DNA of 60,960 nucleotides, counting the filler, from Basidiobolus ranarum (taxonomy: Eukaryota), in the NCBI GenBank assembly GCA_040143965.1. It is 6 parts of 6 records of this genome, joined end to end, with 100 filler letters (N's around TTAATTAATTAA, not from the genome) between each part and the next. Parts side by side here need not be neighbours in the genome. Positions count along the whole stretch, not along the records: positions 20,377 to 30,456 come from JASJQH010007619.1; 5 more parts are not named here. One strand, given 5' to 3'. The notes under the pieces were generated by a model. The model made no database searches. It was not told the origin of the DNA and saw nothing but the letters and a program-made list of their open reading frames with translations. Every line of letters begins with the position of its first letter. Positions within the stretch are counted from its first letter, which is position 1. Below, piece by piece: positions 10,090 to 50,904 of this stretch. Made by a program: the position numbers and the translations under genes.

Positions 10090-10189
10090 NNNNNNNNNNN
10101 NNNNNNNNNNNNNNNNNNNNNNNNNNNNNNNNNTTAATTAATTAANNNNNNNNNNNNNNNNNNNNNNNNNNNNNNNNNNNNNNNNNNNN
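10090..10189. other. Artificial contig spacer (44N-TTAATTAATTAA-44N)
   Basis: Identical 100-nt spacer with stop codons in all six frames, repeated five times in the window. Confidence 0.97.
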
Positions 10190-11446: not shown

Positions 11447-11985
11447 ATTTTGATATATATATATATATGTATGCTTTTAACAGAGGAAAACAACATGTAT
11501 CCTTGGATCTTATTTCTGCTCATGTAAATTTTCTGACTCAACATTTGGTAAATTACAAAAATTAAGGACAAAAGTATCAATTATGATGGATCAAAAATCA
11601 TATAATATCAGTTTTTTTTATGTAATCAGTAGTAGTTGCCAATAAAGGTAAACACATTATATGGAAAATTTTGATAAATTGGTGGACTACATCCCATTTT
11701 ATTAGTATACCTAAATAGTGAACAATTTTCATGATTACTATATATAAAGTTGAATAATTAAGGAATGCATGGAGAGTACCTGCATGCAAAAAAAAGAACA
11801 TAGTTATCAATGCTTAGTTATTTGAGGAGAGTTCAGATATATGTTTGGTCCAAACCCAATTTTGTAATATTACATTAAAATTTACAAATCATGGTTCTAT
11901 TGCTATAGCTTTTCAGCTGGAGCTATAACTATTGCATCCTAGCTTTGGTTTGAAAACTCAATCTCTCACTGTCAGCAGTTACTAT

Positions 11986-12298
11986 TGTTGAAATTAGCAT
12001 TGCCTAAGCACTTATATAGTAATATATAGTTAGTATTTAGCTATTCTATATTGAACTAAGATATTACCCATCATTGGAATTTACTGAGAAGTTCTCAGAT
12101 ATATAGACTTTTCAAAGCAGCCCCAAACTTTGCACACATTTTACTGGGACCTTCCTTAACATATTCTACACGTCAGCTTGTTTACATGTTGACAAAACTA
12201 TTAATGTCACCTGAAAACTCAATAGATCAATAAGTGAAAACCACCAACTTCTCTAGTTCTCCAAACCATTTCCAACAGGTGCCCAAAATACTTCAACA
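11986..12298 (+). mobile_element. Solo LTR of copia family A
   Basis: TGTTGAAATTAGCATTGCCTAAG...AAAATACTTCAACA, homologous to the LTRs at 11099, 22436 and 22827. No PBS follows. Flanks ACTAT/ACCAC may be a decayed 5-bp TSD. Confidence 0.88.
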
Positions 12299-20276: not shown

Positions 20277-20376
20277 NNNNNNNNNNNNNNNNNNNNNNNN
20301 NNNNNNNNNNNNNNNNNNNNTTAATTAATTAANNNNNNNNNNNNNNNNNNNNNNNNNNNNNNNNNNNNNNNNNNNN
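20277..20376. other. Artificial contig spacer
   Basis: 44N-TTAATTAATTAA-44N. Confidence 0.97.
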
Positions 20377-22782
20377 CAACTTCTGGCATTGTACTGGGCT
20401 TTTCAGTAGGCAAAATTTCAGTGGAAGGGTCCACACAAATGCTATTTTCTTCATTGTATTGGTTTGTATCAATTTGAATGATTGGATCTGGAGAAAATTG
20501 ATTTTTGTCATCATCTGAGATCATATTGGGCAAAAATGTTCCATTTACATTAAACAAAACATCCCTGGACTTGATTAACATTGAAATTTAGGAATAATAG
20601 AGTCTGTAGGCCTTAGTTTGGGTGCAATAACCCAGAAATATGCATTGTATCCAAAGATCATCAAATGTTTTACATCAGGTTTAACTCCAAACCAAGCTTG
20701 ATAGGATATAAAGTTAGACTGACTTCTAGTAAAACTCCTATTCTTCAAATATATGGCTGCAACAACAGATTCCACCCAAAAGTTGAGAGATATATTTTGT
20801 GCATTTATCATAGATCTTGCCATTTCTAATATAGTCCTGTTAGCTCTTTCAGCAACTCCATTTTTTTGAGGTGAATAGGGGGCAGTAGTTTCTTAGTTAA
20901 TTCCAAGAACTTTGCAAAAGTGCTCAAATAGTGTTGAAGTATATTCTCCACCATTATCAGTATGTATTTTCCTGCTTTTAGTTCCAGTTCCAGTTCCAGT
21001 CTCCACTTGTGTTTTAAAATATCTAGAGATAGAGAGAGCTTCTTCTTTTCTTTCCATAAAGTAGACCCAAGTGTATCTTGTATAATTATCAATAAATATG
21101 ATTAAATGTGTTTTTCCACCTGAAGATAAATTTTGCATAGGGCCACACAAATCTGAATGAATTAGAACCCATTTTTTGACAGATTTGATTACACCAGAGG
21201 TCTGGAATTGTTGCCAGGCTTGTTTTCCATATATACAACTCTCAAAAATGACCATTATGGTTGGAGGGTCCATTTGAATTCCACAAATTAAGCAATTTTT
21301 GATCATTTTGCTCAAATAATCAAATCCAATATGGCTAAATCTCTTACGCCATAATTAAATAGTTTCTTGATTGGAATAACCTATATTCACACATAAAACT
21401 CTTTGATTATATATAAGCTTGTATAAGGTTTGATCCTTTTCTCCCAAAGCTAAATAATTCCCATTTTGATCAATGATGGTGCATCCTGACTTATCAAAAT
21501 TGAATTTTAGCCCTTCCAAGGAGGCCCTGCAAACAGATATTAAATTCATGGCAATATCTGGAACATGTGGTACATCCTTAAAAATATGAACTTTCTCTTG
21601 AGAAGCACCAGCTTAATTGATTTGAATTATTCCCATTCCAATAGCATCCAATGGGTGGTCATCTCCAATGAAAACCTTTCTAATCTTCAGAATCTATGAA
21701 ATGTTGGGAAGCTCCAGAATCAATATCTCATGTTTGAGTATCCTTATTGGTAATCATAGAAAGAGCAGATATGAACAAGTGATCTTCTGTTGTAACCACA
21801 TTTCCAGATTCAGTATGTATTTCTTCTTTTGCATTCACTTAAAGCAATCTTTGCTTAAATTGCCAGTTCTTTTACAGTAATAACAGAATGTGTTACTTTT
21901 CTTCTTAAAGTACTTTTGACCTTTATAGGAATGTTTCCCATAGCCTATTAAAGCGTTTTCTTCATTCTTATGGTTAGATCCTGATTGGCATAAATTTCAT
22001 CCAGATGTCTGCCAAACATATAATTTAAGATCAAATTTTCAGTTCCTGATTCTAGAGTCATTACTAGGCTCTGAAACCTGTATGGCAGGCTATTCAGGAT
22101 TATAGTCCTGATTTCTTGATCAGTGGTAGGTACTTCAATGCATTCTGGTTTTAGCTCTTGAACATAGAATTAGCAATTTGTCTTGAATATATAGGCAAAT
22201 TGTGTCAAAGGCAAATTTTTCCTTGTTAACCTGGAGTAAAGCTTTTGTTCCAGATAATTTTGCATTGTTTTCTTCTCCTACAACAGTGTCCCAAAGTCCT
22301 TTTACTTGCAGCAGCATTTTCATTTTGATTTTCCAAACTTGATAATTGGAAACATCAAATTTTTCAGAAGAGAGAAATGTTCCATAAATTGGAGAAGTAG
22401 ACACAATAGAGAGTGCAGGCTTAGGGCTCATAACCTGTTAAGTCTTTGGGAGCCTGTTGGAAGTAGTTTGGAGAAATGGAGGAATTGGTGGTTTTTGCTT
22501 GTGGATTTATTGAGTACAAAGTTGACTTTTATAGTTTTGCCAAGATGTCAACAAACCAACATGTAGAATGTGTTAAGGAAGGTCCCAGAAACACATGTGC
22601 ACAGTTTGGGACTTCAAGCACAAGTTTGAAAAATCTATATATCTGAGAACATCAAAGTTGGTAAACTTGTTCTAAGCAAATTCCAATTGAGAATAATAGA
22701 TAATATCTGGTTGAATTATAACATAACTAAATACTAAGCTATATATGACTATATAGGTCTTTAGGCAATGCTAATTTCAACA
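20377..22782 (-). mobile_element. Degenerate Ty1/copia element (family A): 5' LTR 22436-22782, PBS, gag, protease, GAG-pre-integrase, integrase
   Basis: PBS GGTTATGAGCCCT; gag N-terminus KFDVSNYQVWKIKMKMLLQVKGLW; DSGAS protease; ESCIYGKQ, LIHSDLCGP, IHTDNGGEY and NGVAERAN integrase motifs. The protease-then-integrase order is the copia order. Multiple stops and frameshifts. Confidence 0.95.
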
Positions 22783-22826
22783 ATATCTTGGTGAAATATA
22801 ACAGAACTAAATACTAAGCTATATTT

Positions 22827-24184
22827 TGTTGAAATTGGCATTGCCTAAACACCTATATAGTCATATATAGCTTAGTATTTAGTTATGTTATAATTCACTA
22901 AAATATTTTCTGTTATTCGCATGAGGAATTTACTTGTAATAAAGTTTTCAGATATGTAGATTTTGGTAACTTATGCTAGAAGCCCCAAACTTTGCACATA
23001 TGTTCCTGGGACCTTTCTTAACCCACTCTACACATCAGTTTGTATAAATTTTGACAAAACTATAAATGTCAATTTTCCTCTCAATAAATCAATAAGTGAA
23101 ACCACCAATTCCTCTAATTCTCTAAACTACTTCCAACAGGCTTCCAAGTACTGTAACAGGTTATGAGCCCCAAGCTTGCACTCTCAGTAATGCTTACTTC
23201 TCAAATTTATAGAACTTTTCCCTCTTCTGAAAAATTGAATGCATCCAATTATCAAGTTTGGGAAACTAAAATAAAAATACTGCTGCAAGAAAAAGAACCC
23301 TGGATACTGTTGTAGGAGAAGAAAACAATGCAAAACTATCTGAAACAGAAGTTTTACTCCAGGTTAAAAAAGAACAAAGTGCCTTTAACACAATTTGTCT
23401 TAATGTTAAACACAAATTCCTAATTCAATGTTCAAGAGCTAAAACAGCCAAGATGGTATGGAAAGCCTTGGAAGATACCTACCAAAAAAGATCTGCTGTT
23501 AACATGATGTTCCTAAGAAGACAATTCTGTAACTAAAAGATGAAGCCAGGAGAAGAAATAAATCACTAACTCATAGAGTCACTATTTTTGTGAATGAAAT
23601 GGAATGTAAAGGAGTACCTACCACTGATGAAGAAATCAAAGTTAGAGTTCAGAATAGCCTGTCACACAGATTTCAGAGCCTAGTAATGGCTCTAGAATCA
23701 AGAACTGAAAATTTGGTCTTAAATTGTACATTTGGCCAACTTCTGGATGAAGATTTATGCAAATCAGGATCCAACCAAAAGAATGAAGAAAATGTTTCAA
23801 TAGGCTATGGAAAACATTCCTATAATGATCAAAAGCACCTCACAAAGAAAAGCAGCACAATCTGTGATTACTGTAAAAGAACTGGTGATTTAAGCAAAGA
23901 ATTCTTTAAAAGAATTGCAAAAGAAAAATGTATTGAATCAGGAAATGAGGTTACAACCAATGAGCAGTTGGTCATATCTGCTCTATATATGACTACCAAC
24001 AAGGATTCCCAGATGTGGTAAATTGATTCTGGAGCCTCCTAACATTTATAAATGAAAAACATTGGTTTGTGGATTATGAAGTAATCCCAATTAGAAAGGT
24101 TTTCATGGAAGATGACCACACATTGGATGCTATTGGAATGGGAGCAAATCAAGTCAATTTGACTGGTGCTTCTGAAGAGTAAGT
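22827..24184 (+). mobile_element. Degenerate Ty1/copia element (family A): 5' LTR 22827-23158, PBS 23159-23170, gag, knuckle, protease; interrupted at ~24184
   Basis: TG...CA LTR, GGTTATGAGCCC, CDYCKRTGDLSKEF, W*IDSGAS. Colinear with the copy at 20377-22782 until GGTGCTTCTGAAGAGTAAGT, where homology stops abruptly. Confidence 0.93.
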
Positions 24185-25138
24185 GTTGTGTAGATTTATT
24201 TGAATTTCAGAATTATAACCTAGATGATAGACATTCTTACTACTTGGCATGTTGATGTTTCAAACATTGGTTTTGTGCAGCAAGAGAAGTATCTGGATTG
24301 GGAGTGCAACTTCATGCTGGTTGTCTGGTATAACATGTAGTTGGATCAATGGATTTGGATCCTTCCTCACCTTCTTCCTCTGTATTATCTGGTGCTTCCA
24401 ACTAAATTTGGCTTGGCAAAGGCTGTGAAGGCTGTGTTATCTTGAGAATCATGTCCATACTTGTTTCAAATTCCATAGGGCCTGTCATTGATTTTAATTT
24501 GCCTTCATGTGAAGCTTTTTTGAGCATATCCAATAAATCTTTGTGTTTTTTCTTTCTACAGTGAGGTGGAAGAGATTTTAACTCTGCACCAATAGATTGT
24601 TTTGGCAGGTCCATTTTATATTTTTTTTCCTGTGGCAGCCAAAGTGGGAGTGCAAGCACTTCTGGATCATAACTGGAGTTGAATGTTTGTTGAATTGTAG
24701 CACATTTTCCTAATATCAATTTGGTGCTCTTAGAGAGAGGAGTGCAGCAATAATTAATTTCATTGATGTTTTTGCTAATTTGGTTGGCAAGTAACATGAA
24801 TTGAACCACCAGTATTTGGGCTAGAGTGCTATTTGATATTACATTTGGACTGCATAACATACCAATTCCAACTAGTTTACAGATTAGCCAAAGCCACATT
24901 ACTCCCAGGAGCCTTTATAGAATTGCATCAATGGATATTTCCAAAGAAGTTTCTGCAGCATCTGTTTGAATTCTTTTGTGAATTAATCAATCACATGATG
25001 TTGGTGTCTTGGTTGTTGGCAAGGAAGACCAGAGCTCATAGTATGCAAGGTAAAATAAGAAGTTCTGTAGATTTGAGGTCACAAAATTGAATCTCAGAGT
25101 GATTCACAAGCAGTCATGGATATTAAACTATTTACTGC

Positions 25139-27913
25139 TCACATCAACAAAGATTCATTTTCATCATATTGTTGTAAAGCATTGTTAACCAACTGTAAGA
25201 CATAGTCATTTTGTGAGTCCCAAATATTGGATACCAAACTTGACTCTGTGTAAATGTGCTGTGTTTCTTTTTGCAATAATGGTGCAGGATTTTGAGTATT
25301 TACCAGAGGACTATATGTTGACTCCTTAGTTCCTGTCCCAACATTTGGACTTCTGCCCAATGGTAGGGTCTTGTTTGAATTGCAGTTAGATATAATGGTG
25401 ATACCCAGCAAGAATTGATTTTTGTTATTCTCAGGTTGGTAAATATACATCTCCATTTCTTTCAAACAATCATGTAGTGTCCAGGTGAATAATGCAACTC
25501 CTTTGTGGTTTTCTGGTGCAAAAAAATCATCAGATTTTTGACAGTAGCTCTTATAAGCATCTATGCTAGTCCTTCTTGTGATCTGCATGGATGTGTGAGT
25601 AGTAAACAAGTGGAGACTATTTGGATACGGCCTACTACTTCTATTTGCATATGATTTTCACATGAGGTAAAATTATTAAATGACATGTGTCACTGTTGCA
25701 AATAAGTGATGGAAAAGAATTGCATGCGGTACAAATGAATATATTTAGCTATGAACACATTGGCCAAGATACTACATTTGACTGATCAGATTGATTTGAA
25801 GATTTTGTAACTTCAGTATTTATTTGCTATATGGTTGGGGTCAACTCTTTTGCTTAGCCATAAATTCCAATTTGCTGATGAATTTCTGGGTATACTATTT
25901 ATTTGCTATAAAGTCAACCCAAACTGTATAGCATAGCCATCAATCATAAAATTGCTGAACATGTTTATCTCAGCAGCTGTCACTCAGTTAATGATGTGCT
26001 TAAGACCAAAGAAGTACACTGCATGTTTGATACCCCTACCAGCAGTTCCTAGCTTAAATATATATGATACTCTTTAAAAGCCTTTGGTAGACTTGTGTTA
26101 AAGATATAATTTGATTATTTGGAGTTCACAATTTGAGATAATAACCGGTTAACACTCTCTCAAATTCACTTGGCCTAATATTATATTCTTGTTTGACCAG
26201 GTCTTCTATATTGTCAGCTGTGATTTGCTCTGGATCATCAAGGATATTGTAGTTATCTTCAAGAAACATTTTGAGTATATTACTTTGCCCCCAGAATTCA
26301 TTAGTGTTGTTGATAAATGATTTGCACTAGTTAATAAGCTGGTGTTAGTGGAATAAGAATGCCCCATGGAGTACCCAGCATAGAAAATCACACCACATAT
26401 CTAAAGATTTAATTATGTCCACCCTTTTGAGGTTTCCTCTTTTTCTAAATCTTGTTTCTACTTCATCCTCTTTCATAAGCAGATTGAAGTAAATATTGAA
26501 ATGGATCACTTGGATTTGGGAGACCACTGATGGCTCCAGGGCTATACCAGCAATTACATTGGCAGTGCTTAAAAATGTAAACATTGGTATCTGTATGACA
26601 AAAGTATCTCTGTGGTATGTTGCTCTAACAACTATAGCATCACTGCCTTTATATTGTTTGAATTTCACAAAATCCAATTCTCCTTTTGCACTAAGCTTGG
26701 CAAAAATTGCACACCAAGCTCCTATTGATCCCATCAGTTGGGCTATGTGCACATTTTCAGCAGATCAAACATTCTTACAAATAATCTTCTTATCCAAGTT
26801 AGTTATCAGATTACTTATGTTTTCAAATATAGTGTTCCCTGCCCAATGACCTGGACTTGACCCTTGCAACCTTTCATTGATTGTTTCCAGCTTCAAGAAA
26901 TCCCATCTGTTTGAGCAATTTTGGTACAACTCTGCAGGGTCAATAAGCTGCTTATTTTCATCAAGTGTGGTTGTGCCATTACATTCACCAATAAGAACAT
27001 ATTTTAGCAGGCAGCAGAATAACCCTTTACCATTTCTTCCCAACCCATAGAAAAAAATGACTTTATGGAGATTTACTTTGCCACTAAGGCTCTATCTAAG
27101 AAACATTTGTAAGTCCCTGATGAATTTGCAATATTCATTGTCTTTGTGATCCAAGAAGAGCTCCCAAAGAAATGGTTCAAGTGTAGGTAATGGCAAGGCA
27201 ATAACTCTCTCTAGGGAATCCTTGCCTCTCCATGGGGTTTGGATTACTTGTGATATATATAGACTTGGTATTGGGCAAAGGAATTTTCCTGCTTCAAGAT
27301 TCAAGTAACAATTTCCTATTACTAACCAACCTTTTCTGCTAGGGCCATCAATCAGCACAGTTGCCACTGTGAATATAACTTACATGTGAGTTAAAGCAGC
27401 TTGAACCACTGCAATGTTTCTTACTTGATGTAGAAGCTCCTCCATTGCAAAGTCTGTACATTTTAACAGCTTTTTCATCAAACTTACAGCTTGTTGTTGC
27501 CCATTAGCTAGTCAATATTCCTTCCCTTTGTTAAAATTGCTCTGTAGACTGGTGATGTAAAGTTCTAGAAAGCTTGATATTTTATATGTTGGATCCCTTG
27601 TTGGTTCCCAAATCACACCATTCCACAGGAGCCATGCTTTAGTGGTTTTTATAAGTTTCTTAATTCCACTCTCTGATCCAACTAAACATTTTATCAGCCA
27701 AATTATTACTGATGTCATGTTACAAGATATTATCACCACATTGTAAATGACATCAGTTGGTATCCAGCATGGTGTGAGTGTAAATCCATAATGATCACCA
27801 TAATGCTCTGTTATATCAGTAATGGTACCATTAATACAATTGAGATCCAAGTACTTGTGTTTCAATTTTTCTAAAGCCAGATAAAAAGTCACTATCAGGA
27901 AGACCTTCTGCAC
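25139..27913 (-). pseudogene. D5/P4-family SF3 primase-helicase pseudogene (D5_N + SF3 ATPase + C-terminal region)
   Basis: ORF-track pieces 27512-27913, 27092-27367, 26765-27043, 26345-26752 and 25139-25609 share one frame, and the first four are separated only by in-frame stops. Motifs: WLLWNGVIWEP and GNCYLNLEAGKF..P.PSLYISQ (D5_N), LSGKVNLHKVIFFYGLGRNGKG (Walker A), LDFVKFKQYKGSDAIVVRATY..PMFTFLSTAN..IQVIHFNIYF (motifs B'/C), FLCWVLHGA..EF..SNILKMFLED. Confidence 0.8.
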
Positions 27914-29239
27914 TCAACATTTCTATCACAAGATCCATTGACATATATTTCCATACAAGTACTGTACCATATGACCAAAGAGACACCCCATTTGGACAAG
28001 GTATGGGAGAGGAAGGTTATAATCCATACAGATAGGTATTAGGAAATGTTTTACTTCACAGTTTTACTTGCATGATCATAAGTCCATTTTCCTCTGTGTA
28101 TCTCACAGCATCATACTCCCTTGGACAACTCCAGAAAAAGGATCTCAATATACCTGGACCTCAAGGAAACCTTGCTATAATTGGGTGTGATTGTATAGTA
28201 AAATGACTGCCATGGCCTGTATTACTTCCTTTTTTCAAAACTTCAGATAGAGCAAAATGAGGCCAAACTCCAATTTTTATCACATGCACTCTTTTTGTTC
28301 TACTCTTGGAAGGGCCAAGTTTGTTATTGTAACTGGAGCTGGCTGATAAAACATCTGCACACCCAACCTGAGCACAAAGCCCACCAGTATACCATGGACT
28401 TCCTTTCATTTGTCTTTAATATATGGAAGTAAAGCACATATTTGGTTATAAGTACTATGATAAGTTGGAAAGTGGTCCAGGTCTGTGTAGGTTGATATAG
28501 TATTCATAGAAGAATCTTCTTCTAACAAGGTTGCATCTCCAGAATACTTAGAGCTGTGCAAGATACAAAAAGTGCAATTTGTACTATAACAATTGAATCT
28601 GGTTGCTTTTGTTGGAGAAATAAACTAGCTTGAATTTCACCTTCAATAGCCAATTTTACAAGCCTTGCATTAGGGTTTAAAGGAATTGGGCTTCTTGGAG
28701 AATATTTGCAAGATTAAAAATGCAATTGACCTCTTGCATATATGTAATAACATACCAAGAATATTTGTAGTACCCATTATCCTTATAGGGGCAATGATCA
28801 CAAGCCCAGCATAAATTGCCTTCCATTATTTCAAACTCAATGAACTCAGAATAGTGCTCATTAAAAACTCTTATATATACCTGGGTATAGATGTTCTGGT
28901 AAGGGTAAGAGAGGGTAAGGATGAAAAGAGGGGGTCTGGGGGATGCAGTCCTCCCAGTATAAAAAAAAATATCCACTATAATAGGGTGGCACAAGTGACT
29001 ACTAAAGATTAACGTGGTGATTACAGACAAGCCACTGCACATTACAATTACTCGAGAGAAATACAATGGCTATACTTTATGATAACAGCTGACATGTCAA
29101 CATTTACAAAGTATACAATTGATGAAAGATGAGAGTAAAGATCATGACTAGGTATGATAGTTGATATGATGAAGCAAGCATCATTTCTTCCTTAGCTATA
29201 TAACTATCAACATATCTTCACAAAGATGCTTTATTTAAA

Positions 29240-30074
29240 GGTACAAGGAATATCACACCACAAAAATATCAAGATTACTTCCCACATCTATCTACTAGAA
29301 GAGACAAAGTTAGTGTTCAAAGTGGGACAATAGCAAACCAACAGTCCCAAAACCCAGTGGTGCCTAATGGGAACCAAACTATCCATGCATTGGGCACTGT
29401 AGAACAACTGGCTGTGAACAGGCAACAAAATGCCCAAAATTCTACTGTTCTTTGAAGAAATAGTGTGGAGGCAACTAATGCAATTTGCCAGCTTCTGCAC
29501 CACAGTATAAGCATTCTCCAGTACCAAGTTATATATATAGCACTCTGCAAATTGGAGAGAATGCTGGTGTTAGTGCCAGAAAGCAAACATTTAACACCTA
29601 CTCAAGTCAGTGAGTACATGACTTTTATTCTTTCAATGACTTACATCAGTCCCAACCAAATAACAATGAGTCATAATGTGAAAGTAAAATATAAACAAAT
29701 TGTCAACAATCTTTGGGACTTGTGCAGAAATAAGCTTCAAGTTTAAATCCAAACATTAGCTCTCATAGTTACATATAAATGTCCAATAGCAGTCAGAAGA
29801 GATAGCCATCCACCTCATCTGACTGATAGGCAATCAACTCCTACAATAGCACACACATCCAACAAACCATCTACTGCAGGCCTTCAATCATCACAACCAG
29901 AAAACCAAAGAAGAGGTAGAAGATATTGAGAAAATATGGGCTGTTTGGAGGAACTTTAGAAAAGTGCAGTTGTGAATAGCTTTGTGAGATAATGGTTTAT
30001 TGTCCAGAAATAAAGCATTTATACTTCTTGGTGGAAATACAGAAAACCAACACTGGGGTTGTGTTCCGAACATC
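29240..30074 (+). pseudogene. Decayed ORF of unknown function, divergent from the helicase gene
   Basis: Long reading frame (…QDYFPHLSTRRDKVSVQSGTIANQQSQNPVV…EATNAICQLL…NLWDLCRNKLQV*IQTL…) broken by isolated stops and cut by the LTR at 30075. No recognisable motif. Confidence 0.35.
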
Positions 30075-30456
30075 TGTGGGAGTAAAATGAGCTAGCTTTG
30101 GGGCAATTTAGACAAGTTTGAAATTTCCAATATGGAATTGCTAATTCTCACATTATTCACATATATACAATATATGTTCCAATTCTCAGCTAAGCAATAT
30201 TTGACTAAGTAAAGTTAACTAACTTATATGTGATATATGAAGTAGTTAGGTGTATAAAGATAGAGATAACAAATATGATAAAGACAACAACCTCAACACT
30301 CCCACTCAACTAAATATTCATATATCTTAATCCTAACTTAAATCTTAATTCTTCAAATTTAGACTTGGGTAATGGTTTGGTAAGGATGTCAGCAATCATG
30401 TCCTCAGTTGGACAGTACTCCAGTTGGATGTGCTTACTCTCAATAGCTTCCCTAAC
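30075..30456 (-). mobile_element. 3' end of a second Ty1/copia family (family B): RNase H C-terminus, PPT, 3' LTR 30075-30298
   Basis: Minus-strand VREAIESKHIQLEYCPTEDMIADILTKPLPKSKFEELRFKLGL*, then purine tract GAGTGGGAG and a ~224-bp TGTTGAGG...CCCACA LTR unrelated to family A. Confidence 0.9.
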
Positions 30457-30556
30457 NNNNNNNNNNNNNNNNNNNNNNNNNNNNNNNNNNNNNNNNNNNN
30501 TTAATTAATTAANNNNNNNNNNNNNNNNNNNNNNNNNNNNNNNNNNNNNNNNNNNN
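30457..30556. other. Artificial contig spacer
   Basis: 44N-TTAATTAATTAA-44N. Confidence 0.97.
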
Positions 30557-32635
30557 ATGACGTAAGCAACCTATGAGTAGTTCGTCATTAAGTGCATGAT
30601 CTCTCCTGATACCTTCGACTATTTAGGAAATTGATAGATTAGGTGAGAGCCATGGGGCTTACATAATATTTATTGACCCAAGCTAAATAGATAACATGCT
30701 GAGAAACGTGATCGTTCTTCATATATACTTGGCACAACTCCTCACCGGAAATATTATAGTAGAAGAATTATGTAGCCCAATAACCCATTAATTAGTGGTC
30801 CCTTGCTTTCTATTTCTATATTGAACATCCTTTAGGATATGTTAAGGGGAACAGTATCATTGATTAGTTAAAACTGCTACATGTCTGTTAGGGAGGTATA
30901 CCCAAGTGCTCAGGTGAGGATTCGACTGCAGATAATCACAGGATATGTCATTTCTTGACCAGTTTTCGTTTTCAGAGGATGGTTGAACAAGTAACCTAAT
31001 TCCTGGACTTAAATGAGCAATATAAAGATAAATTAGAAATTACAACAAAAAATGGTGCTGTGATATATGTATTTAGCCAACTAGTTTCTAATTGTTAATT
31101 GTTTTGAGGCATATGCTAATTGACCAGCTCGCTTGAAATATAGCAAATAGATCAGTTAAAGATAGGTTTTCCTGGGCTTTTGATCAACTCACAACCCCAC
31201 AAAAGTATATCGGCCCTATCACCTTAATAAAGGCGAAACGGGGTACAAGCCACACTCTCAGCTTTAAACAGGTGTTCAATATTGTATTTCTTTGATAATG
31301 ATTAGGATTGACAACGAATGCCATGTTCTAAGAAAAGCATCTGAGCTCGCAGCTGTAGTATATGCCTGACAACGTGTGCATACAAGTGTGTTTAAACCGG
31401 TTTATATAGGGAAGGGCTCCACTTGATTGTACCCCGCTCATATCAAAGGAGTTGTTGGGGAGCCTCGGGATGAGATTCGATAAGCCATTACCTGAGTGTT
31501 GGAGTATCACTAGCGAGAACTGGTACCAATCCCGATTCACAGCTATTGACATGTGCAGTGCACTTGCTAGCTGGCAGGAAAGACATGTCTTCTATCATGG
31601 AAGAAAAGTGCGAGATAGCGTGCTAGTCATCACCATCCGTGTAAGTAAAACTAACTCAAAGAGACTAACCCAGTAAGGTGCACGAGCGACAGGTAAAACA
31701 TAGAATATAGTAACTTGGCACTCTTTTGTGAATCATAAATCGCTGAAGCGCTTTGCATGAGACAAGTTTAACCCGAAAGGCGTCCGGTGTAATACTAAGT
31801 GACAATAGTATTATTAAAAGTCCCAGTTGATCTCCGGGATCTCGGAAATCACTGATGTTTTCATCATCAAAAAGATCATTTCGCTTCTTACATATATGAT
31901 GCTGAATTTAGCAATAGAAACTAAGGACAAATAAATCTAATTCAGCCACAAATTCAAGTTAGCCTGGGACCTATCCAATAAACAAAAGCCCTCCTGTGTT
32001 TTAACTTACAACCCATCATTTTTGCTCAATATTTCCTGCGTTTCACCGCTTCTCGCTACTTCAGAGATTGCTGCCTATAGTGTCCAGTATACAATCAACT
32101 TGTTCTTACTCTTATAGGACTTTTCTTTTCTGACGTGTACTTACATTTGTACACTGCATTGATCTTCGTAGCTTTTCTGTGATCCTTCAAATCATGTCTA
32201 TCGTTAATTGCCGTCAATTGTATAGGACATTGGAGAATACGCACCGAAAATCTCAGTGGCTAAAATCACCGATCATTTGGTGATGCATCTCAACCCACCC
32301 GTGTTTATTGTACTTGGACTACATGATCTACTGGTTTTCGCTTATGCATGATTTTTGGTACTAACTTGCCTCACTTGTTTTATTTCCCTCTTTTATCAGT
32401 CATTGCTCATGTACCCTATTTCAGGGGAGTTGGTGACTATCATTTCTGTGGAGAGTATATTTAATCTCAGCTTGCCCTTCCAATCGACTAATACTCACTC
32501 CAAATCTCATCTGTCCATCTAAGTCTTTGATTGATCTGAGAATAGCCTTTGTATTCGCAACGTTCATCTCTGTTACATATCCTTCTATATTTTCACTCTA
32601 CATCGATCGGTTGTCGAAGGTAAAGGACCATAAAT

Positions 32636-40632: not shown

Positions 40633-40732
40633 NNNNNNNNNNNNNNNNNNNNNNNNNNNNNNNNNNNNNNNNNNNNTTAATTAATTAANNNNNNNNNNNN
40701 NNNNNNNNNNNNNNNNNNNNNNNNNNNNNNNN
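40633..40732. other. Artificial contig spacer
   Basis: 44N-TTAATTAATTAA-44N. Confidence 0.97.
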
Positions 40733-41471: not shown

Positions 41472-42428
41472 GATGGAGCAGGCGATATTGAAGAAGAAGC
41501 AACTGATGAGTCTTAGGGATTAAGCGAATGCTCTTTTTATTCCAAAATTCGATACATGGATTGGGAATGGTAGTAGTTTATTATATAACTCATGTCGTAA
41601 GCTTACGAATACCAGAAGTCGAAACTCTGATATGAAATGTGCACTTGACAAACTGCTATTTGTAGCAACTTAATTTTGCTTTTAGACTATGAACAAAGCC
41701 GTCATTAATTTAATACTGTATATTTGGCAAGTAGAATATTTCGATTCAGCGTGTATTAGGGTTACCATGCAATTTTTGCAAAGAGCGATATATATTCTGG
41801 TAACAGACAACTGTCAAACTACCTGCAAGGGTAACAATGATGGGGGATATATTGTAGGCATTCAGGATGAATTGGAAATATTTAGGATAATTAGAGGAAA
41901 AATCGGACTTACACTTACTGCTCAGGTGTGAAATAAAGGATCTATACTTTTGATAGGAATAAAGAGACATAATGATTGAGATGAATATGAAGATTCACTC
42001 AGGGATTTGAGGAAGAAGCTTGAGATGATTTGGGTGAGTATGTAAATTTTTTCGCAGTAGCTATCCGCTTGATTCGGAATACAAGCTCTGACTTGAGCTT
42101 TTGAGAGATTCGCAAGATAAACTAAAACCATACTAATCAGCGTCTATGAATCTTTGAGTACATGACTCCAGCAGAACACATACTTGTTGGTTCCAACCCT
42201 ATGCAAATGTTGGAGTAGATTTCTTGGTGACCAACATCAACCCTAACTAGTCGTCAAGTATGGTACAGTGATTAGAGCGATTATGTTAGAATTATAGGGC
42301 ACCTGTATATGGAGCCACCACGGTAAACACTGAATACTACATGTGTCCTGCAAGTAACTATATTGTGCTCTGATTGAAATTCCTTGATAAAGTGAAATGG
42401 AGTTAAAGAATCTATAGTTAGTATATAC

Positions 42429-42766
42429 TGTTGAGATTGGCATTGCCTAAACACCTATATAGCACATATAGCTTAGTATTTAGTTATCCTATATTGAACT
42501 ATGATATTACCCATTATTCTCTTGAGGAATTTACGTAGTATATTAGCACCAACTTAGAAGTCTCAGATATATAGATTTTTCAAAGAAACCCCAAACTTTG
42601 CACACTTGCTCCTGAGACCTTCCTTTACTCATTCTACATGTTAGTTTGTTTACATCTTGAGAAAACTATAAATGTCCACTGAACACTCAATAAATCAGTG
42701 AGTGAAAACCACCAATTTCTCTAATTCTCCAAACCACTTCCAATAGGCTCCCAAAATACTTTAACA
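42429..42766 (+). mobile_element. Solo LTR of copia family A
   Basis: TGTTGAGATTGGCATTGCCTAAAC...AAAATACTTTAACA; flanks TATAC/TATAT (near-perfect 5-bp TSD); no PBS. Confidence 0.92.
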
Positions 42767-46475: not shown

Positions 46476-47818
46476 AGTAATAGTATAATAGAAATCAAAA
46501 CAACATTGCCTCTCTTCCTCAAGAGACGGATATATAGTATATACAGAGTAGAACCGGACCAATTAAGAAGCCACATGAATATAATAAACAAAAATCAAGT
46601 CAGTATATCCATTCAAGCCACTAGATTGATCAGGGATTGGTGGTGGTATTCCGGATTGTGACATCACGATACTTGATTGTGGCTCGGATTTGTCTGTATT
46701 ACTATGAACCATAAGACACCAGTGGATTGATTTCCCTGGGCAAAGCCATCAAGGCCGCTTGCTGAGTAGAAGGATCGATAAAGCTATGGATATATGCTAA
46801 GGTAAGGGATCTCATGACTTGTGCTCAGATGGCGTATTGATGATCACTCCTAGATTCAGATGGCATTGCGCAGTCCGTGATGAGCATATATACGGTTTCG
46901 GTGTTTAGAAAAACGCTTGATGTGATAATGACATCAACAGAACAGGAGCAATTTTGAATTGATGTTAATCCAACTATATTATTTGGCGTCTGACTAAATA
47001 TGCTATTGTGAATAGTAAAATTGCTCCATTATCATATCACCGGCATTATGGTCTCAACTCGTATCCATCATGGCGCAATAGATCGCTGACCGTTTCGGAT
47101 CCGAGCAGAAGCTGGAAAGGTGGATTATGGCTATTCACTGGGTCACTAGTCAGAAATCTCAGTCGAAGGCAGAAAATAGTGTAGGTCTATATCAGTAAGA
47201 TCGATGTGGAGCCCTGTTGTCTCCATTAATACACTAGCTAAGCAAGCGTGACTTACCAAATGGCACCTCCAATCAACAATATCAGTCTCATTTACGACCA
47301 ACTCCACAGTACATTACTTTGAGTCGCGATATTTCACACTCTCGGTCTTTGAGCCGAAATTAGTGCCATGTTGAATGAATGCTTGGCCAAAACCAAGCGA
47401 ATCAGCTCGGGTAGCACAGCCAAGAAACGCTGTGTCATGATAATCTCTGGTTTTGTCAATTGTTACTTTATGGGCAAGCAAATCTTTCCTTAAATTAAGC
47501 TTTCACTGGTGAAATAGCAACAATATATGCTAATTTAGTATGGCTTTTCACGAAAGCAAAAGCTATTTTTGATCTGGATTTGGTGAGGGTCTAGCTCCAT
47601 CTTCTAGTCGTCTTAGGGTTAGGGTTAGCTACATGAATCACTATTGTACATTGAGCATTGGAAGGATTCCAATCAGAATGCGCAAATTGAATCAGTTTGA
47701 GATTGCCCCTTTTGAGGACTAAATCCTTATTATTCTTCAACGTCTGCCAAGCCAGTCGACTACGGATAATCATGTTATAAACTCATCAATGGTGGAACTT
47801 TTGGTATAAGATTTTCTT

Positions 47819-49612
47819 ATGATTGAAATATTCTCCAGGCCATTTTCATCACCTGTAGTGATAGGTGCCGCTTTACTCTTTCTGGTTTGTTTTTTGTGTG
47901 CCGTCCGAGACTACTCTCCCGACTGGAGACTTGAAAAAGAGAAGAAAGCGAACTTGAATAGTAAAAGCAATGCAGAATTAACTAACCCTACAAAGAACAG
48001 ATTTCTATTAATTCCTTTTGTTCCTCTTGCTTTTGTCTATCTTTCCCTCAGATTAATTTGGGGGTTGTTTAAAATCGCAGTTTTTTGCTCAGTCGACGGA
48101 ATACTATGGACTTTTGCAAAGATACCTTCGCTACTTTACCGTTCCTTAAATTACGTGACTAATTTACCAGAAGTAATCAGACGTATAGCCCCTGAATATT
48201 GGGAACTTTATATCTTGGCCCCATGCACCTTTGTTCTAGATTATGGACTGAAAATCTTCTTTAAATACCTCATACCACTTTCAAACAAGATCGTCCAGCT
48301 CTCCATTGTTTCTTCTCATACAATCCTTGAGGCTTTTCATCGCAGTTGTAGCTACCTGTGGGGTCTCTCTCAATCTCTTGCGGTTGCTCTGCGGAACTCA
48401 TTTCTAGGGCCATTTTTGCACTCATGTAAGACTATTGTACATGATATATTCTCTTGGGTTATATCACGAGGGTCGTTTTTGGGAAAACTCGCAATTCAGT
48501 GCCTTCATATACTTGCTCTTGATTTATTTGAGGATTGCAAAGACTTGTGCAATTTTGTCCAAAAGATTAGTTTGATGGTTTCAGCTGCGATGAAACCGGT
48601 TGCAAATTTTGCCGTCCGTAACATTCGAGGACTACTCAAGGGTATATACTCCAGTTATTGGCACCTTCTACGTAAACTTAACCCTGCCTGGGAGCAATTC
48701 GTTCAATGCTATCTTTTACGCATAGGCTCATATATTCGTGAATCTTACCACAGCTTCTTGGCGGCACTGCGTAACTATTCAATCTTAGCCTCTTGGGGCC
48801 TCTGCAAGATTACATATCGTTCTCTTGTAGCAATTATCTCGTGGACTTGGAATGTAGGACTTCCCAGATCTAGAACAATTGTGGCTAATTCTTTAATTCT
48901 ATTTTGTGAAAGTACATTCTCATTTTTGTGCCAAGCTTATTACGGCTCCAAGTACCTCTATAACCACGTCTTAAAGAAAGCATACCATGCGCTTGTTGAA
49001 GTGCATCGTCGTGCAGTGATTGCGTCGTTACGATTCTACCGAATTGTGCGCAACACATTCTGGAATTCATTGAAGTATATTCAAGTTTTGAACACTCGAA
49101 TGTGGATTCCCATCAGAAATGTAATGACGCAGGCTTGGCAATACGCGGTACTTGTTAGCTATTCTCTTTGTCAGAAGGCCAGTGTGGCGGTTCAATTCAT
49201 GGCCTCTTATACTACAAGATGTGGTGCAATCTTATCATCGAACTTCCAATCTGTGATTGCTTTATTACAGCCACTTGTGCATATACTTGGAGAAACCATC
49301 AAGCAGATCGGACCCTTAAGTGTAATCGTATTGGAGAACACCAGGAAGATCATGTTGCTCTCTCAAAAAATGGCGCAGAATTACTTGGAACGAATGTGGC
49401 CAGTAGTTCTACAATATTCTGTCGAAGTATCGAATATAACCTCCCAAGGTTTCTCGGAACTCGGTCGTCTTGTGAAGGAAGGCTACGATGGTATTCAACC
49501 GGTGATCCTCACTTGGAAGGAAAACCTCACGGTCGCAGCAGACGAAATCATTCAATATCTTGGACGTTCCATGATTGACTGGATGAAGTCAGTGAAGGCT
49601 AAGCGAGAGTAA
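47819..49612 (+). CDS. Hypothetical 597-aa hydrophobic, helix-rich protein (intronless)
   Basis: Uninterrupted 1.8-kb ORF in AT-rich DNA; two N-terminal hydrophobic segments followed by long amphipathic W/Y/F/C-rich stretches; no recognised motif. Confidence 0.75.
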   Translation: MIEIFSRPFSSPVVIGAALLFLVCFLCAVRDYSPDWRLEKEKKANLNSKSNAELTNPTKNRFLLIPFVPLAFVYLSLRLIWGLFKIAVFCSVDGILWTFAKIPSLLYRSLNYVTNLPEVIRRIAPEYWELYILAPCTFVLDYGLKIFFKYLIPLSNKIVQLSIVSSHTILEAFHRSCSYLWGLSQSLAVALRNSFLGPFLHSCKTIVHDIFSWVISRGSFLGKLAIQCLHILALDLFEDCKDLCNFVQKISLMVSAAMKPVANFAVRNIRGLLKGIYSSYWHLLRKLNPAWEQFVQCYLLRIGSYIRESYHSFLAALRNYSILASWGLCKITYRSLVAIISWTWNVGLPRSRTIVANSLILFCESTFSFLCQAYYGSKYLYNHVLKKAYHALVEVHRRAVIASLRFYRIVRNTFWNSLKYIQVLNTRMWIPIRNVMTQAWQYAVLVSYSLCQKASVAVQFMASYTTRCGAILSSNFQSVIALLQPLVHILGETIKQIGPLSVIVLENTRKIMLLSQKMAQNYLERMWPVVLQYSVEVSNITSQGFSELGRLVKEGYDGIQPVILTWKENLTVAADEIIQYLGRSMIDWMKSVKAKRE

Positions 49613-50804: not shown

Positions 50805-50904
50805 NNNNNNNNNNNNNNNNNNNNNNNNNNNNNNNNNNNNNNNNNNNNTTAATTAATTAANNNNNNNNNNNNNNNNNNNNNNNNNNNNNNNNNNNNNNNN
50901 NNNN
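50805..50904. other. Artificial contig spacer
   Basis: 44N-TTAATTAATTAA-44N. Confidence 0.97.

Follow-up and report, generated by a model that had tools for sequence, protein, structure and literature searches.

A decayed D5/P4-family helicase gene in a probable relic of foreign DNA among copia retrotransposons of Basidiobolus ranarum

In a window of 60,960 nucleotides assigned to the fungus Basidiobolus ranarum (the whole stretch of DNA that was analysed, to which all positions refer), the minus strand between 27880 and 25987 carries a pseudogene whose identity is solid: it encoded a D5_N plus superfamily-3 (SF3) helicase of the D5/P4 family. The gene lies within a segment of about 5.9 kb (24185-30074) that has no transposon domain and no second copy in the window, and that is set among remains of Ty1/copia retrotransposons. 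We consider it probable that this segment is a relic of foreign DNA in a Basidiobolus-like genome, left either by an integrated DNA virus or by a virus-like mobile element. The source may have been giant-virus-like, Polinton-like or virophage-like, or of an undescribed class.

Identity of the helicase

The assignment to the D5/P4 family is carried by profile, sequence and fold comparisons. The segment copy matches the NCBIfam profile TIGR01613 (‘phage/plasmid primase, P4 family’, C-terminal domain, that is, the SF3 helicase) with an E value of 6.5e-11, as well as seven PHROG families, six of which are DNA primases or polymerase/primases (best E 7.8e-7). Its match to Pfam D5_N (PF08706) has an E value of 3.5e-4 and, at 21.3 bits, falls slightly under the cut-off of 22.4 bits. 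An earlier examination of the window, made from the sequence alone (hereafter the sequence-only reading), had proposed a minus-strand D5_N domain followed by a Walker A motif (FFYGLGRNGKG) and SF3 B' and C motifs. All of these are present, with D5_N below its cut-off, and the expected D5/SF3 profile match was obtained through TIGR01613.

The closest relative, P0002, was the only match in a word-indexed search of 5.8 billion proteins. It is hypothetical protein K7432_015886 of Basidiobolus ranarum, 492 aa long and named ‘SF3 helicase domain-containing’ in UniRef, and it shares 67% identity with the segment copy over 75% of the query (E 2e-188). P0002 itself reaches the TIGR01613 cut-off (109.0 versus 108.7 bits, E 2e-31), and three other relatives, P0003, P0004 and P0006, pass that of D5_N (29.2, 23.3 and 26.8 bits). 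A Pfam scan of 13 relatives found D5_N in 10 and DUF5906 (PF19263) in nine, three of these nine lying below the cut-off. Throughout the D5_N region, the segment copy aligns to the relatives that bear this domain. The N-terminal half of D5_N is visible in the segment copy and has no counterpart in the P0002 gene model. When the 51 database relatives described below were compared with the window by tblastn, all homology fell inside 27880-25987.

The fold was tested on the intact relative P0002, for which an AlphaFold2 model built on a 145-sequence alignment reached a mean predicted local distance difference test score (pLDDT) of 83.1 and a predicted template modelling score (pTM) of 0.79. The Foldseek matches of this model in the PDB were the PrimPol of African swine fever virus (ASFV; 8iqi, E 1.4e-15), E5 of monkeypox virus (MPXV; 8wh6), D5 of vaccinia virus (VACV; 8apl) and the primase-helicase of SaPI5 (7ola), with E values spanning 1e-15 to 1e-11 and query template modelling scores (TMq) of 0.5-0.6.

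The sequence-only reading had also spoken of a primase-helicase, and this part of the name does not survive. Pfam detects no primase profile of the archaeo-eukaryotic type (AEP/Prim-Pol) in six frames of 27850-30077, where decay could hide a remnant, and tblastn aligns no primase part of any relative upstream of 27880. A primase domain is likewise missing from P0002 and from the six nearest relatives scanned (P0003-P0008), including P0006, a protein of 686 aa that begins with methionine. The encoded protein is a helicase only, and ‘primase-helicase’ is an unsupported description that overstates its content, because neither the frames of the segment nor the nearest relatives contain a primase domain.

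Decay of the gene

When read through from 27913 on the minus strand, the segment yields a protein that contains FFYGLGRNGKG and then the SF3 motifs. Seven in-frame stops interrupt this reading within 27880-26078 (at 27512, 27380, 27092, 26765, 26345, 26327 and 26126), where P0002 has E, Y, R, K, W or Q. Because the stops are matched to six different sense residues, they are mutations, and stop-codon recoding is ruled out.

The earlier proposal of one minus-strand frame holds in so far as the read-through frame carries the motifs, but the gene extends beyond that frame at one end and probably at both. The 25 C-terminal residues of P0002 find their match in a different frame, at 26061-25987, which places a frameshift near 26070. 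Otherwise P0002 is colinear with the segment copy over residues 1-462 and again, past this frameshift, over residues 468-492. Their alignment contains no intron-sized gap, and the claim that the gene is intronless is upheld. At the other end, residues 10-92 of P0007, its Cys/His-rich N-terminus, match 28151-27891 in another frame with an E value of 0.017. This weak match suggests a gene start near 28150 and a frameshift near 27890, so that the pseudogene as a whole might occupy 25987-28151 on the minus strand, with firm homology over 27880-25987.

Alignment to the relatives locates the motifs of the SF3 ATPase core on the minus strand. The Walker A motif GLGRNGKG is intact at 27023-27046, the B' motif is also present after it, and the motif C region at 26558-26575 reads FLSTAN where P0002 has LITTN. 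In the Walker B region (26690-26713; alignment A1) the segment copy has IFAKL opposite IFDEL in P0002, and the catalytic DE pair is thus replaced by AK. The Walker A, Walker B, B' and C motifs establish homology to SF3 ATPases, whereas the AK for DE exchange and the seven stops speak against function. Judged by its reading frame, with at least one frameshift, a second weakly indicated, and the Walker B pair gone, the segment copy is dead. P0002, in contrast, has an open frame and an intact Walker B DE pair.

Two further features of the family were observed. An insertion of about 45 residues lies between Walker A and Walker B (P0002 residues 168-213; about 26770-26990 on the minus strand of the segment); its modelled pLDDT is about 42, and the canonical D5-type helicases in the alignment lack it. 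Ahead of D5_N, a Cys/His-rich motif (SPCG.EHR ... CHD..C) is found at about residues 55-90 of P0006 and 55-110 of P0007, and may represent a zinc-binding module. The corresponding region of the segment copy is at 27836-27868 on the minus strand, where several of the Cys and His positions are substituted.

Relatives and placement of the family

Members of the helicase lineage are rare: among 1.84 billion cluster representatives, a full HMMER search returned 51 relatives at E ≤ 1e-3, seven at E ≤ 1e-10 and two at E ≤ 1e-30, and identity between family members is 24-38%. Outside the family, the best phmmer E value is 3.7e-7, and the named profile matches are all bacterial, phage or plasmid P4-family primases. 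One profile search recovered P0006 alone from among the six members P0003-P0008. The best of these non-family matches by sequence carry PriCT, Prim-Pol, RepB_primase or NrS-1 domains, which are typical of prokaryotic elements. Many of the P4-family matches are helicase-only proteins, about 460 aa long, with D5_N and DUF5906.

Pattern-based scans of large collections added one relative. In metagenomes, one of 348 pattern matches was confirmed, a 1.9-kb contig (L001) with 38% identity, and none of 219 was confirmed in a prokaryotic genome collection covering 185,579 species. Positions 1-1470 of L001, at 40% GC, hold the helicase split over three frames, and the sequence looks decayed or intron-bearing. 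Because L001 is broken by frameshifts, other copies of the family also appear to decay. The gene for P0002 lies on a contig of 3.7 kb.

In a quick IQ-TREE search (139 rows, 464 columns; non-family rows shorter than 330 aa dropped), where the other rows were unlabelled or bacterial P4-family proteins picked by similarity, the segment copy, P0002 and P0003-P0008 occupy one side of a branch with a Shimodaira-Hasegawa-like approximate likelihood ratio (SH-aLRT) support of 84. Branches are long, the segment copy and P0002 are sisters (support 100), and the family is nested in none of the bacterial clades of the tree.

Among the viral models of BFVD, those of D5-type proteins from phages, virophages and giant viruses match the P0002 model, with E values from 5.6e-21 to about 1e-17 and identities of 13-17% throughout. 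Proteins from all three sources fall within about one order of magnitude in E. In terms of predicted fold, the helicase is therefore no nearer to giant viruses than to phages or virophages.

Comparison with known systems

The family shares with other SF3 helicases of the D5/P4 type (VACV D5, MPXV E5, ASFV PrimPol C962R, phage P4 alpha and SaPI5) the order of D5_N, SF3 ATPase and C-terminal helical domain. It differs from them in having no N-terminal AEP/Prim-Pol domain and in the extra residues between Walker A and Walker B, a low-confidence part of the model that is common to P0002 and the segment copy. It is also remote, P0002 being only 13-17% identical to any viral BFVD protein, and the segment copy is a pseudogene. 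The bifunctional primase-helicases, D5 proper and P4 alpha, are further set apart by a fused primase part, whereas no fused AEP/Prim-Pol or Toprim domain was found here. The replication helicases of virophages and Polinton-like viruses (PLVs), small integrating DNA elements of eukaryotes, are likewise of the D5 SF3 type, and proteins of Zamilon and of Yellowstone Lake virophage 5 (YSLV5) are among the top 25 fold matches of P0002. Unlike those viruses, the segment shows no capsid, penton, packaging ATPase, protease, integrase or terminal inverted repeats (TIRs), and pattern-limited scans confirmed no sequence relative of the family in IMG/VR.

A published precedent exists for viral relics in this genus. 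By its main-text description, the study of Gong, Zhang & Han 2020 (PMC7017919) reports endogenous sequences resembling nucleocytoplasmic large DNA viruses (NCLDVs), called ‘fundsalphavirus’, in 14 fungi, among them Basidiobolus meristosporus and B. heterosporus. According to the same account, the NCLDV family-B DNA polymerase served as the probe for these elements. Genes for a methyltransferase, an SNF2 helicase and subunits of RNA polymerase accompany it, and six genes, a D5 helicase-primase among them, are common to the elements. They are described as showing premature stops, frameshifts and sometimes retrotransposon sequences nearby, and as being placed close to Pithovirus. Likened on the basis of that description, our segment resembles these elements in its host genus as judged from the nearest homologue, its D5-type gene, its stops and frameshifts and its retrotransposon neighbours. 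It differs in that none of the polymerase, RNA polymerase subunit, SNF2 helicase or methyltransferase genes so described is found on this contig. As far as the account in PMC13533422 (Mycodnaviridae) goes, giant-virus capsid genes were found in no non-zoosporic fungus but Dimargaris. Our literature search found no description of the present helicase lineage in Basidiobolus, and PMC7017919 was the nearest report. The degree of novelty implied by the sequence-only reading must thus be reduced, given that NCLDV-like relics with D5 genes were published for Basidiobolus in 2020, as PMC7017919 describes them.

Borders of the segment and make-up of the window

In all likelihood, the window joins six distinct contigs, each about 10 kb long. 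Five identical linkers of 100 nt (each 44 N, then TTAATTAATTAA, then 44 N) lie at 10090-10189, 20277-20376, 30457-30556, 40633-40732 and 50805-50904, and they divide the 60,960 nt into pieces of 10089, 10087, 10080, 10076, 10072 and 10056 nt, each shorter than the one before. Genes are interrupted at these linkers: a sugar-transporter open reading frame (ORF) is broken at the second linker (profile position 161 of 452) with copia sequence behind it, and the copia pol C-terminus at 30310-30456 is not resumed past the third linker, where none of three ORFs of at least 70 aa in 30557-32000 has a family match. Given six joined contigs, the housekeeping genes found elsewhere in the window are not physical neighbours of the helicase segment. 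Any feature or synteny that spans a linker is not real.

The whole finding falls within piece 3, a contig of 10,080 bp (20377-30456) delimited by linkers on both sides. Its copia family recurs in pieces 2 and 5 at 74-86% identity by blastn, and by Pfam these two pieces carry ordinary fungal-type genes, a sugar transporter and a cation-efflux gene, respectively. Because pieces 2, 3 and 5 have this copia family in common, the relic appears to share a genome with fungal genes, and the pieces seem to derive from one genome. The GC content of the segment, about 36-37%, is at the same low level as the rest of the window.

On the left, the contig begins with the 5' part of a minus-strand Ty1/copia element (20377-22786) that runs off the contig end. 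Pfam assigns rve and gag_pre-integrs to 20896-21354 and DUF4219/Retrotran_gag_3 to 22138-22437, and a block resembling a long terminal repeat (LTR) at 22445-22786 is found again at 11983-12287 and 42425-42755. It is followed by a second copy of this copia, diverged and inverted, on the plus strand (22823-24184), which contains Retrotran_gag_2 at 23270-23533 and is truncated within the polyprotein. The pairing of the two copies is documented by inverted repeats I1-I9, with 80-87% complementarity and a final arm that joins 24090-24184 to 21590-21684, and by blastn (23602-24184 with 22145-21590). The two copies (21590-22786 and 22823-24184) stand head to head, 36 nt apart, and form an imperfect palindrome centred at about 22805.

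The left border of the segment at 24184/24185 is real and, at the level of sequence, confirmed, because the inverted copia similarity ends exactly there (24184 paired with 21590) while the minus-strand copy continues into integrase. The sequence-only reading had placed the end of copia homology at this same point. This border is a truncation of copia and not a demonstrated element terminus.

On the right, a putative 3' LTR of a different copia (TG...CA, about 224 nt, minus strand, 30075-30298) is read after a pol stop and a purine-rich tract. The minus-strand ORF at 30310-30456, which is cut by the contig end, has no profile match, and we take it to be the C-terminal end of a copia-type pol from its terminal motif. 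It is plausible, then, that the right border at 30074/30075 is the end of a putative copia LTR. The LTR proposed earlier for this edge fits in length and in its termini, but it has no partner on the contig and no second copy in the window.

Between these borders, the segment has no nucleotide similarity by blastn to the copia copies of the window. It also has no gag, protease, integrase, reverse transcriptase or RNase H homology, copia domains found by profile being restricted to 20896-24184. A Ty1/copia origin of the segment is not supported, as copia domains are confined to the flanks. The segment is free of tandem repeats and of credible terminal repeats, its sole internal inverted pair (I14, 28 nt at 79%) being chance-like, and the contig has no tRNA and no Rfam match. 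The 5.9-kb segment is a fragment without demonstrated termini, because one side is cut and the other is most likely interrupted by a copia insertion. The element boundaries implied by the sequence-only reading are not borne out.

Other open reading frames in the segment

Further coding remnants were picked by stop-codon density, and ORF lengths were tested against 1000 shuffles of the flank. Downstream of the helicase and on the same strand are open frames of 172 aa (25139-25657) and 170 aa (24402-24914), neither of which was equalled in 1000 shuffles of the downstream flank, where the longest ORF was 165 aa. Both are probable coding remnants without known relatives. The 172-aa frame has no match in Pfam, PHROGs, the ESM Atlas or PDB sequences, and the 170-aa frame has none in Pfam, PHROGs or the PDB, its best ESM Atlas score of 0.86 being under the lead level of 0.9. 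BESS-domain clusters in the Atlas were considered as kin of a flank ORF and set aside, as that score is below the lead level.

Upstream of the helicase, a minus-strand frame of 130 aa (28677-29069) is weakly significant, since 21 of 1000 shuffles gave an ORF as long, and it has no family match in Pfam or PHROGs. On the plus strand, three adjoining ORFs in one frame (29204-29929) have two stops in 242 codons, a low density compared with the roughly 6.8 expected per 100 codons. This stretch, also without a Pfam or PHROG match, is a possible coding remnant of divergent orientation that heads toward the copia LTR.

Elsewhere in the window, piece 5 contains an uninterrupted open frame of 600 aa (47810-49609, plus strand) with no Pfam family. 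Its translation looks helical or hydrophobic and repeat-like, and it is unusually long for DNA that is rich in introns and stops.

Origin of the segment

We favour a foreign origin of the helicase over a housekeeping role because the family is rare, because its named matches outside the family are all phage/plasmid P4 primases, and because the gene has no intron-sized gaps. Host-type genes in other pieces of the window are split across frames, unlike the helicase. The contention that D5/P4 helicases are of viral, phage or plasmid type, and are foreign to retrotransposons and to the housekeeping genes of fungi, is in keeping with all of the named sequence and fold matches. As for the remnant of a foreign element that had been proposed, a degraded D5/P4 helicase amid copia debris agrees with it, but a virus is indistinguishable here from other foreign DNA.

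A probable course of events can be outlined. The product of the only recognizable gene would have been a hexameric D5/P4-family helicase serving replication, with a predicted layout of Cys/His-rich N-terminus, D5_N, SF3 ATPase and a C-terminal helical or winged-helix part, and with no primase domain. In the live element, as judged from the family, this helicase would have loaded at the element's origin and unwound DNA for replication. After inactivation, the locus would have been absorbed into a graveyard of retrotransposons, so that a putative copia LTR now abuts one side, a truncated copia copy ends the other and about 5.9 kb is left on the contig. The remaining stretch probably holds two or three further coding remnants without known relatives.

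Several results weigh against a viral or virus-like source. Twelve six-frame read-throughs of the flanks and the ORFs of at least 70 aa reveal no capsid, DNA polymerase, packaging ATPase, RNA polymerase or non-copia integrase or transposase. The absence of capsid, protein-primed family-B DNA polymerase (pPolB) and integrase genes had been remarked on in the sequence-only reading, and no terminal repeats were found in the segment. Three pattern-limited scans of IMG/VR viral contigs, queried with P0002, P0003 and alignment A2, confirmed no relatives among 11, 5 and 39 pattern matches. In addition, the tree contains no labelled giant-virus, virophage or PLV rows and has no bearing on viral affinity. 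The Pfam scan took in 123 ORFs of the whole window, of which the context of the helicase is 10 kb only.

A narrower form of the favoured reading, which we regard as a serious possibility though not the expected one, is that the segment is a fragment of an endogenous giant-virus-like insertion of the published ‘fundsalphavirus’ kind. As described in PMC7017919, such insertions have D5 among six common genes, Basidiobolus hosts, retrotransposons nearby and an affinity to Pithovirus. The top BFVD fold match of P0002 is a cedratvirus D5-type primase/helicase (E 5.6e-21), and a Solivirus and a Pithovirus metagenome-assembled genome are in the top 50. However, phage and virophage proteins are at most about tenfold behind the cedratvirus match in E, at the same low identity, and the AEP primase domain of the solved D5-type matches (ASFV PrimPol, MPXV E5) is missing. 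The domains borne by the best non-family sequence matches are also those typical of prokaryotic elements. Moreover, the contig has no further NCLDV gene: the core set of family-B DNA polymerase, major capsid protein, A32 ATPase, RNA polymerase subunits and SNF2 helicase is absent from the 123 ORFs and from the flank read-throughs. If this account were true, the finding would already be known.

It is also conceivable, if rather doubtful, that the segment is the relic of a small integrating element, such as a PLV, an element akin to virophages or a self-replicating DNA transposon of an undescribed type, with a helicase-only replication protein. The replication proteins of Zamilon and YSLV5 among the best fold matches favour such an origin, as do the compact, intronless gene with its adjoining same-strand ORFs of unassigned function, and a family that is small, diverse and often broken, as in mobile families. 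The hallmarks of Polintons, PLVs and virophages (double jelly-roll capsid, packaging ATPase, integrase, pPolB and TIRs) are nevertheless all missing from the segment, which may be too short to retain them, and the IMG/VR scans supply no relative.

We think it improbable that the fungus gained the gene from bacteria or phages, as a P4-family helicase gene, through horizontal transfer, with a possible duplication and later pseudogenization, and that no eukaryotic virus or transposon ever carried it. Basidiobolus holds many bacterial-derived genes, and the named non-family matches, with helicase-only D5_N and DUF5906 proteins common among them, are all of the bacterial ‘phage/plasmid primase, P4 family’ type. 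Yet the family forms its own long branch outside every bacterial clade of the tree, its best match beyond the family reaches just 3.7e-7, no relative was confirmed in prokaryotic genomes, and the low identity among its members points to a long separate history.

Contamination or a chimeric join beside copia is very improbable: although the contig is short and made of repeats, and although some assemblers and library methods can create head-to-head inverted pairs, the inverted copia arms are 80-87% identical and not close to 100%, the closest relative comes from an independent NCBI assembly of Basidiobolus ranarum, the GC content equals that of the rest of the window and the decay is typical of resident DNA. 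The same 80-87% identity marks the inverted pair as diverged copies and rules out a fold-back assembly artefact.

Implications

Little is known about DNA viruses and virus-like elements in fungi. Taken alone, the segment copy is no more than a dead fragment, and relics of this general kind are already in print, as PMC7017919 describes them. We can offer only as a speculative proposal, one that we think unlikely on balance, that the helicase is the trace of a so far undescribed lineage of DNA elements in Basidiobolus-like, non-zoosporic fungi, either a small DNA virus or a self-replicating transposon. If true, this lineage would be separate from giant viruses, from virophages and PLVs, and from phages; it would replicate with a primase-less helicase composed of the Cys/His-rich region, D5_N and SF3, and it would carry orphan ORFs like the two frames of about 170 aa. 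The near-absence of the family from databases (seven members at E ≤ 1e-10) would then reflect a host-restricted and mostly fossil family.

A rare and deeply diverged D5-type lineage in a non-zoosporic fungus is, in any case, a usable probe for longer copies in full genomes. Such copies could tell whether the former occupant of Basidiobolus was a giant virus, an integrating virus of small size or a replicative element of a new kind.

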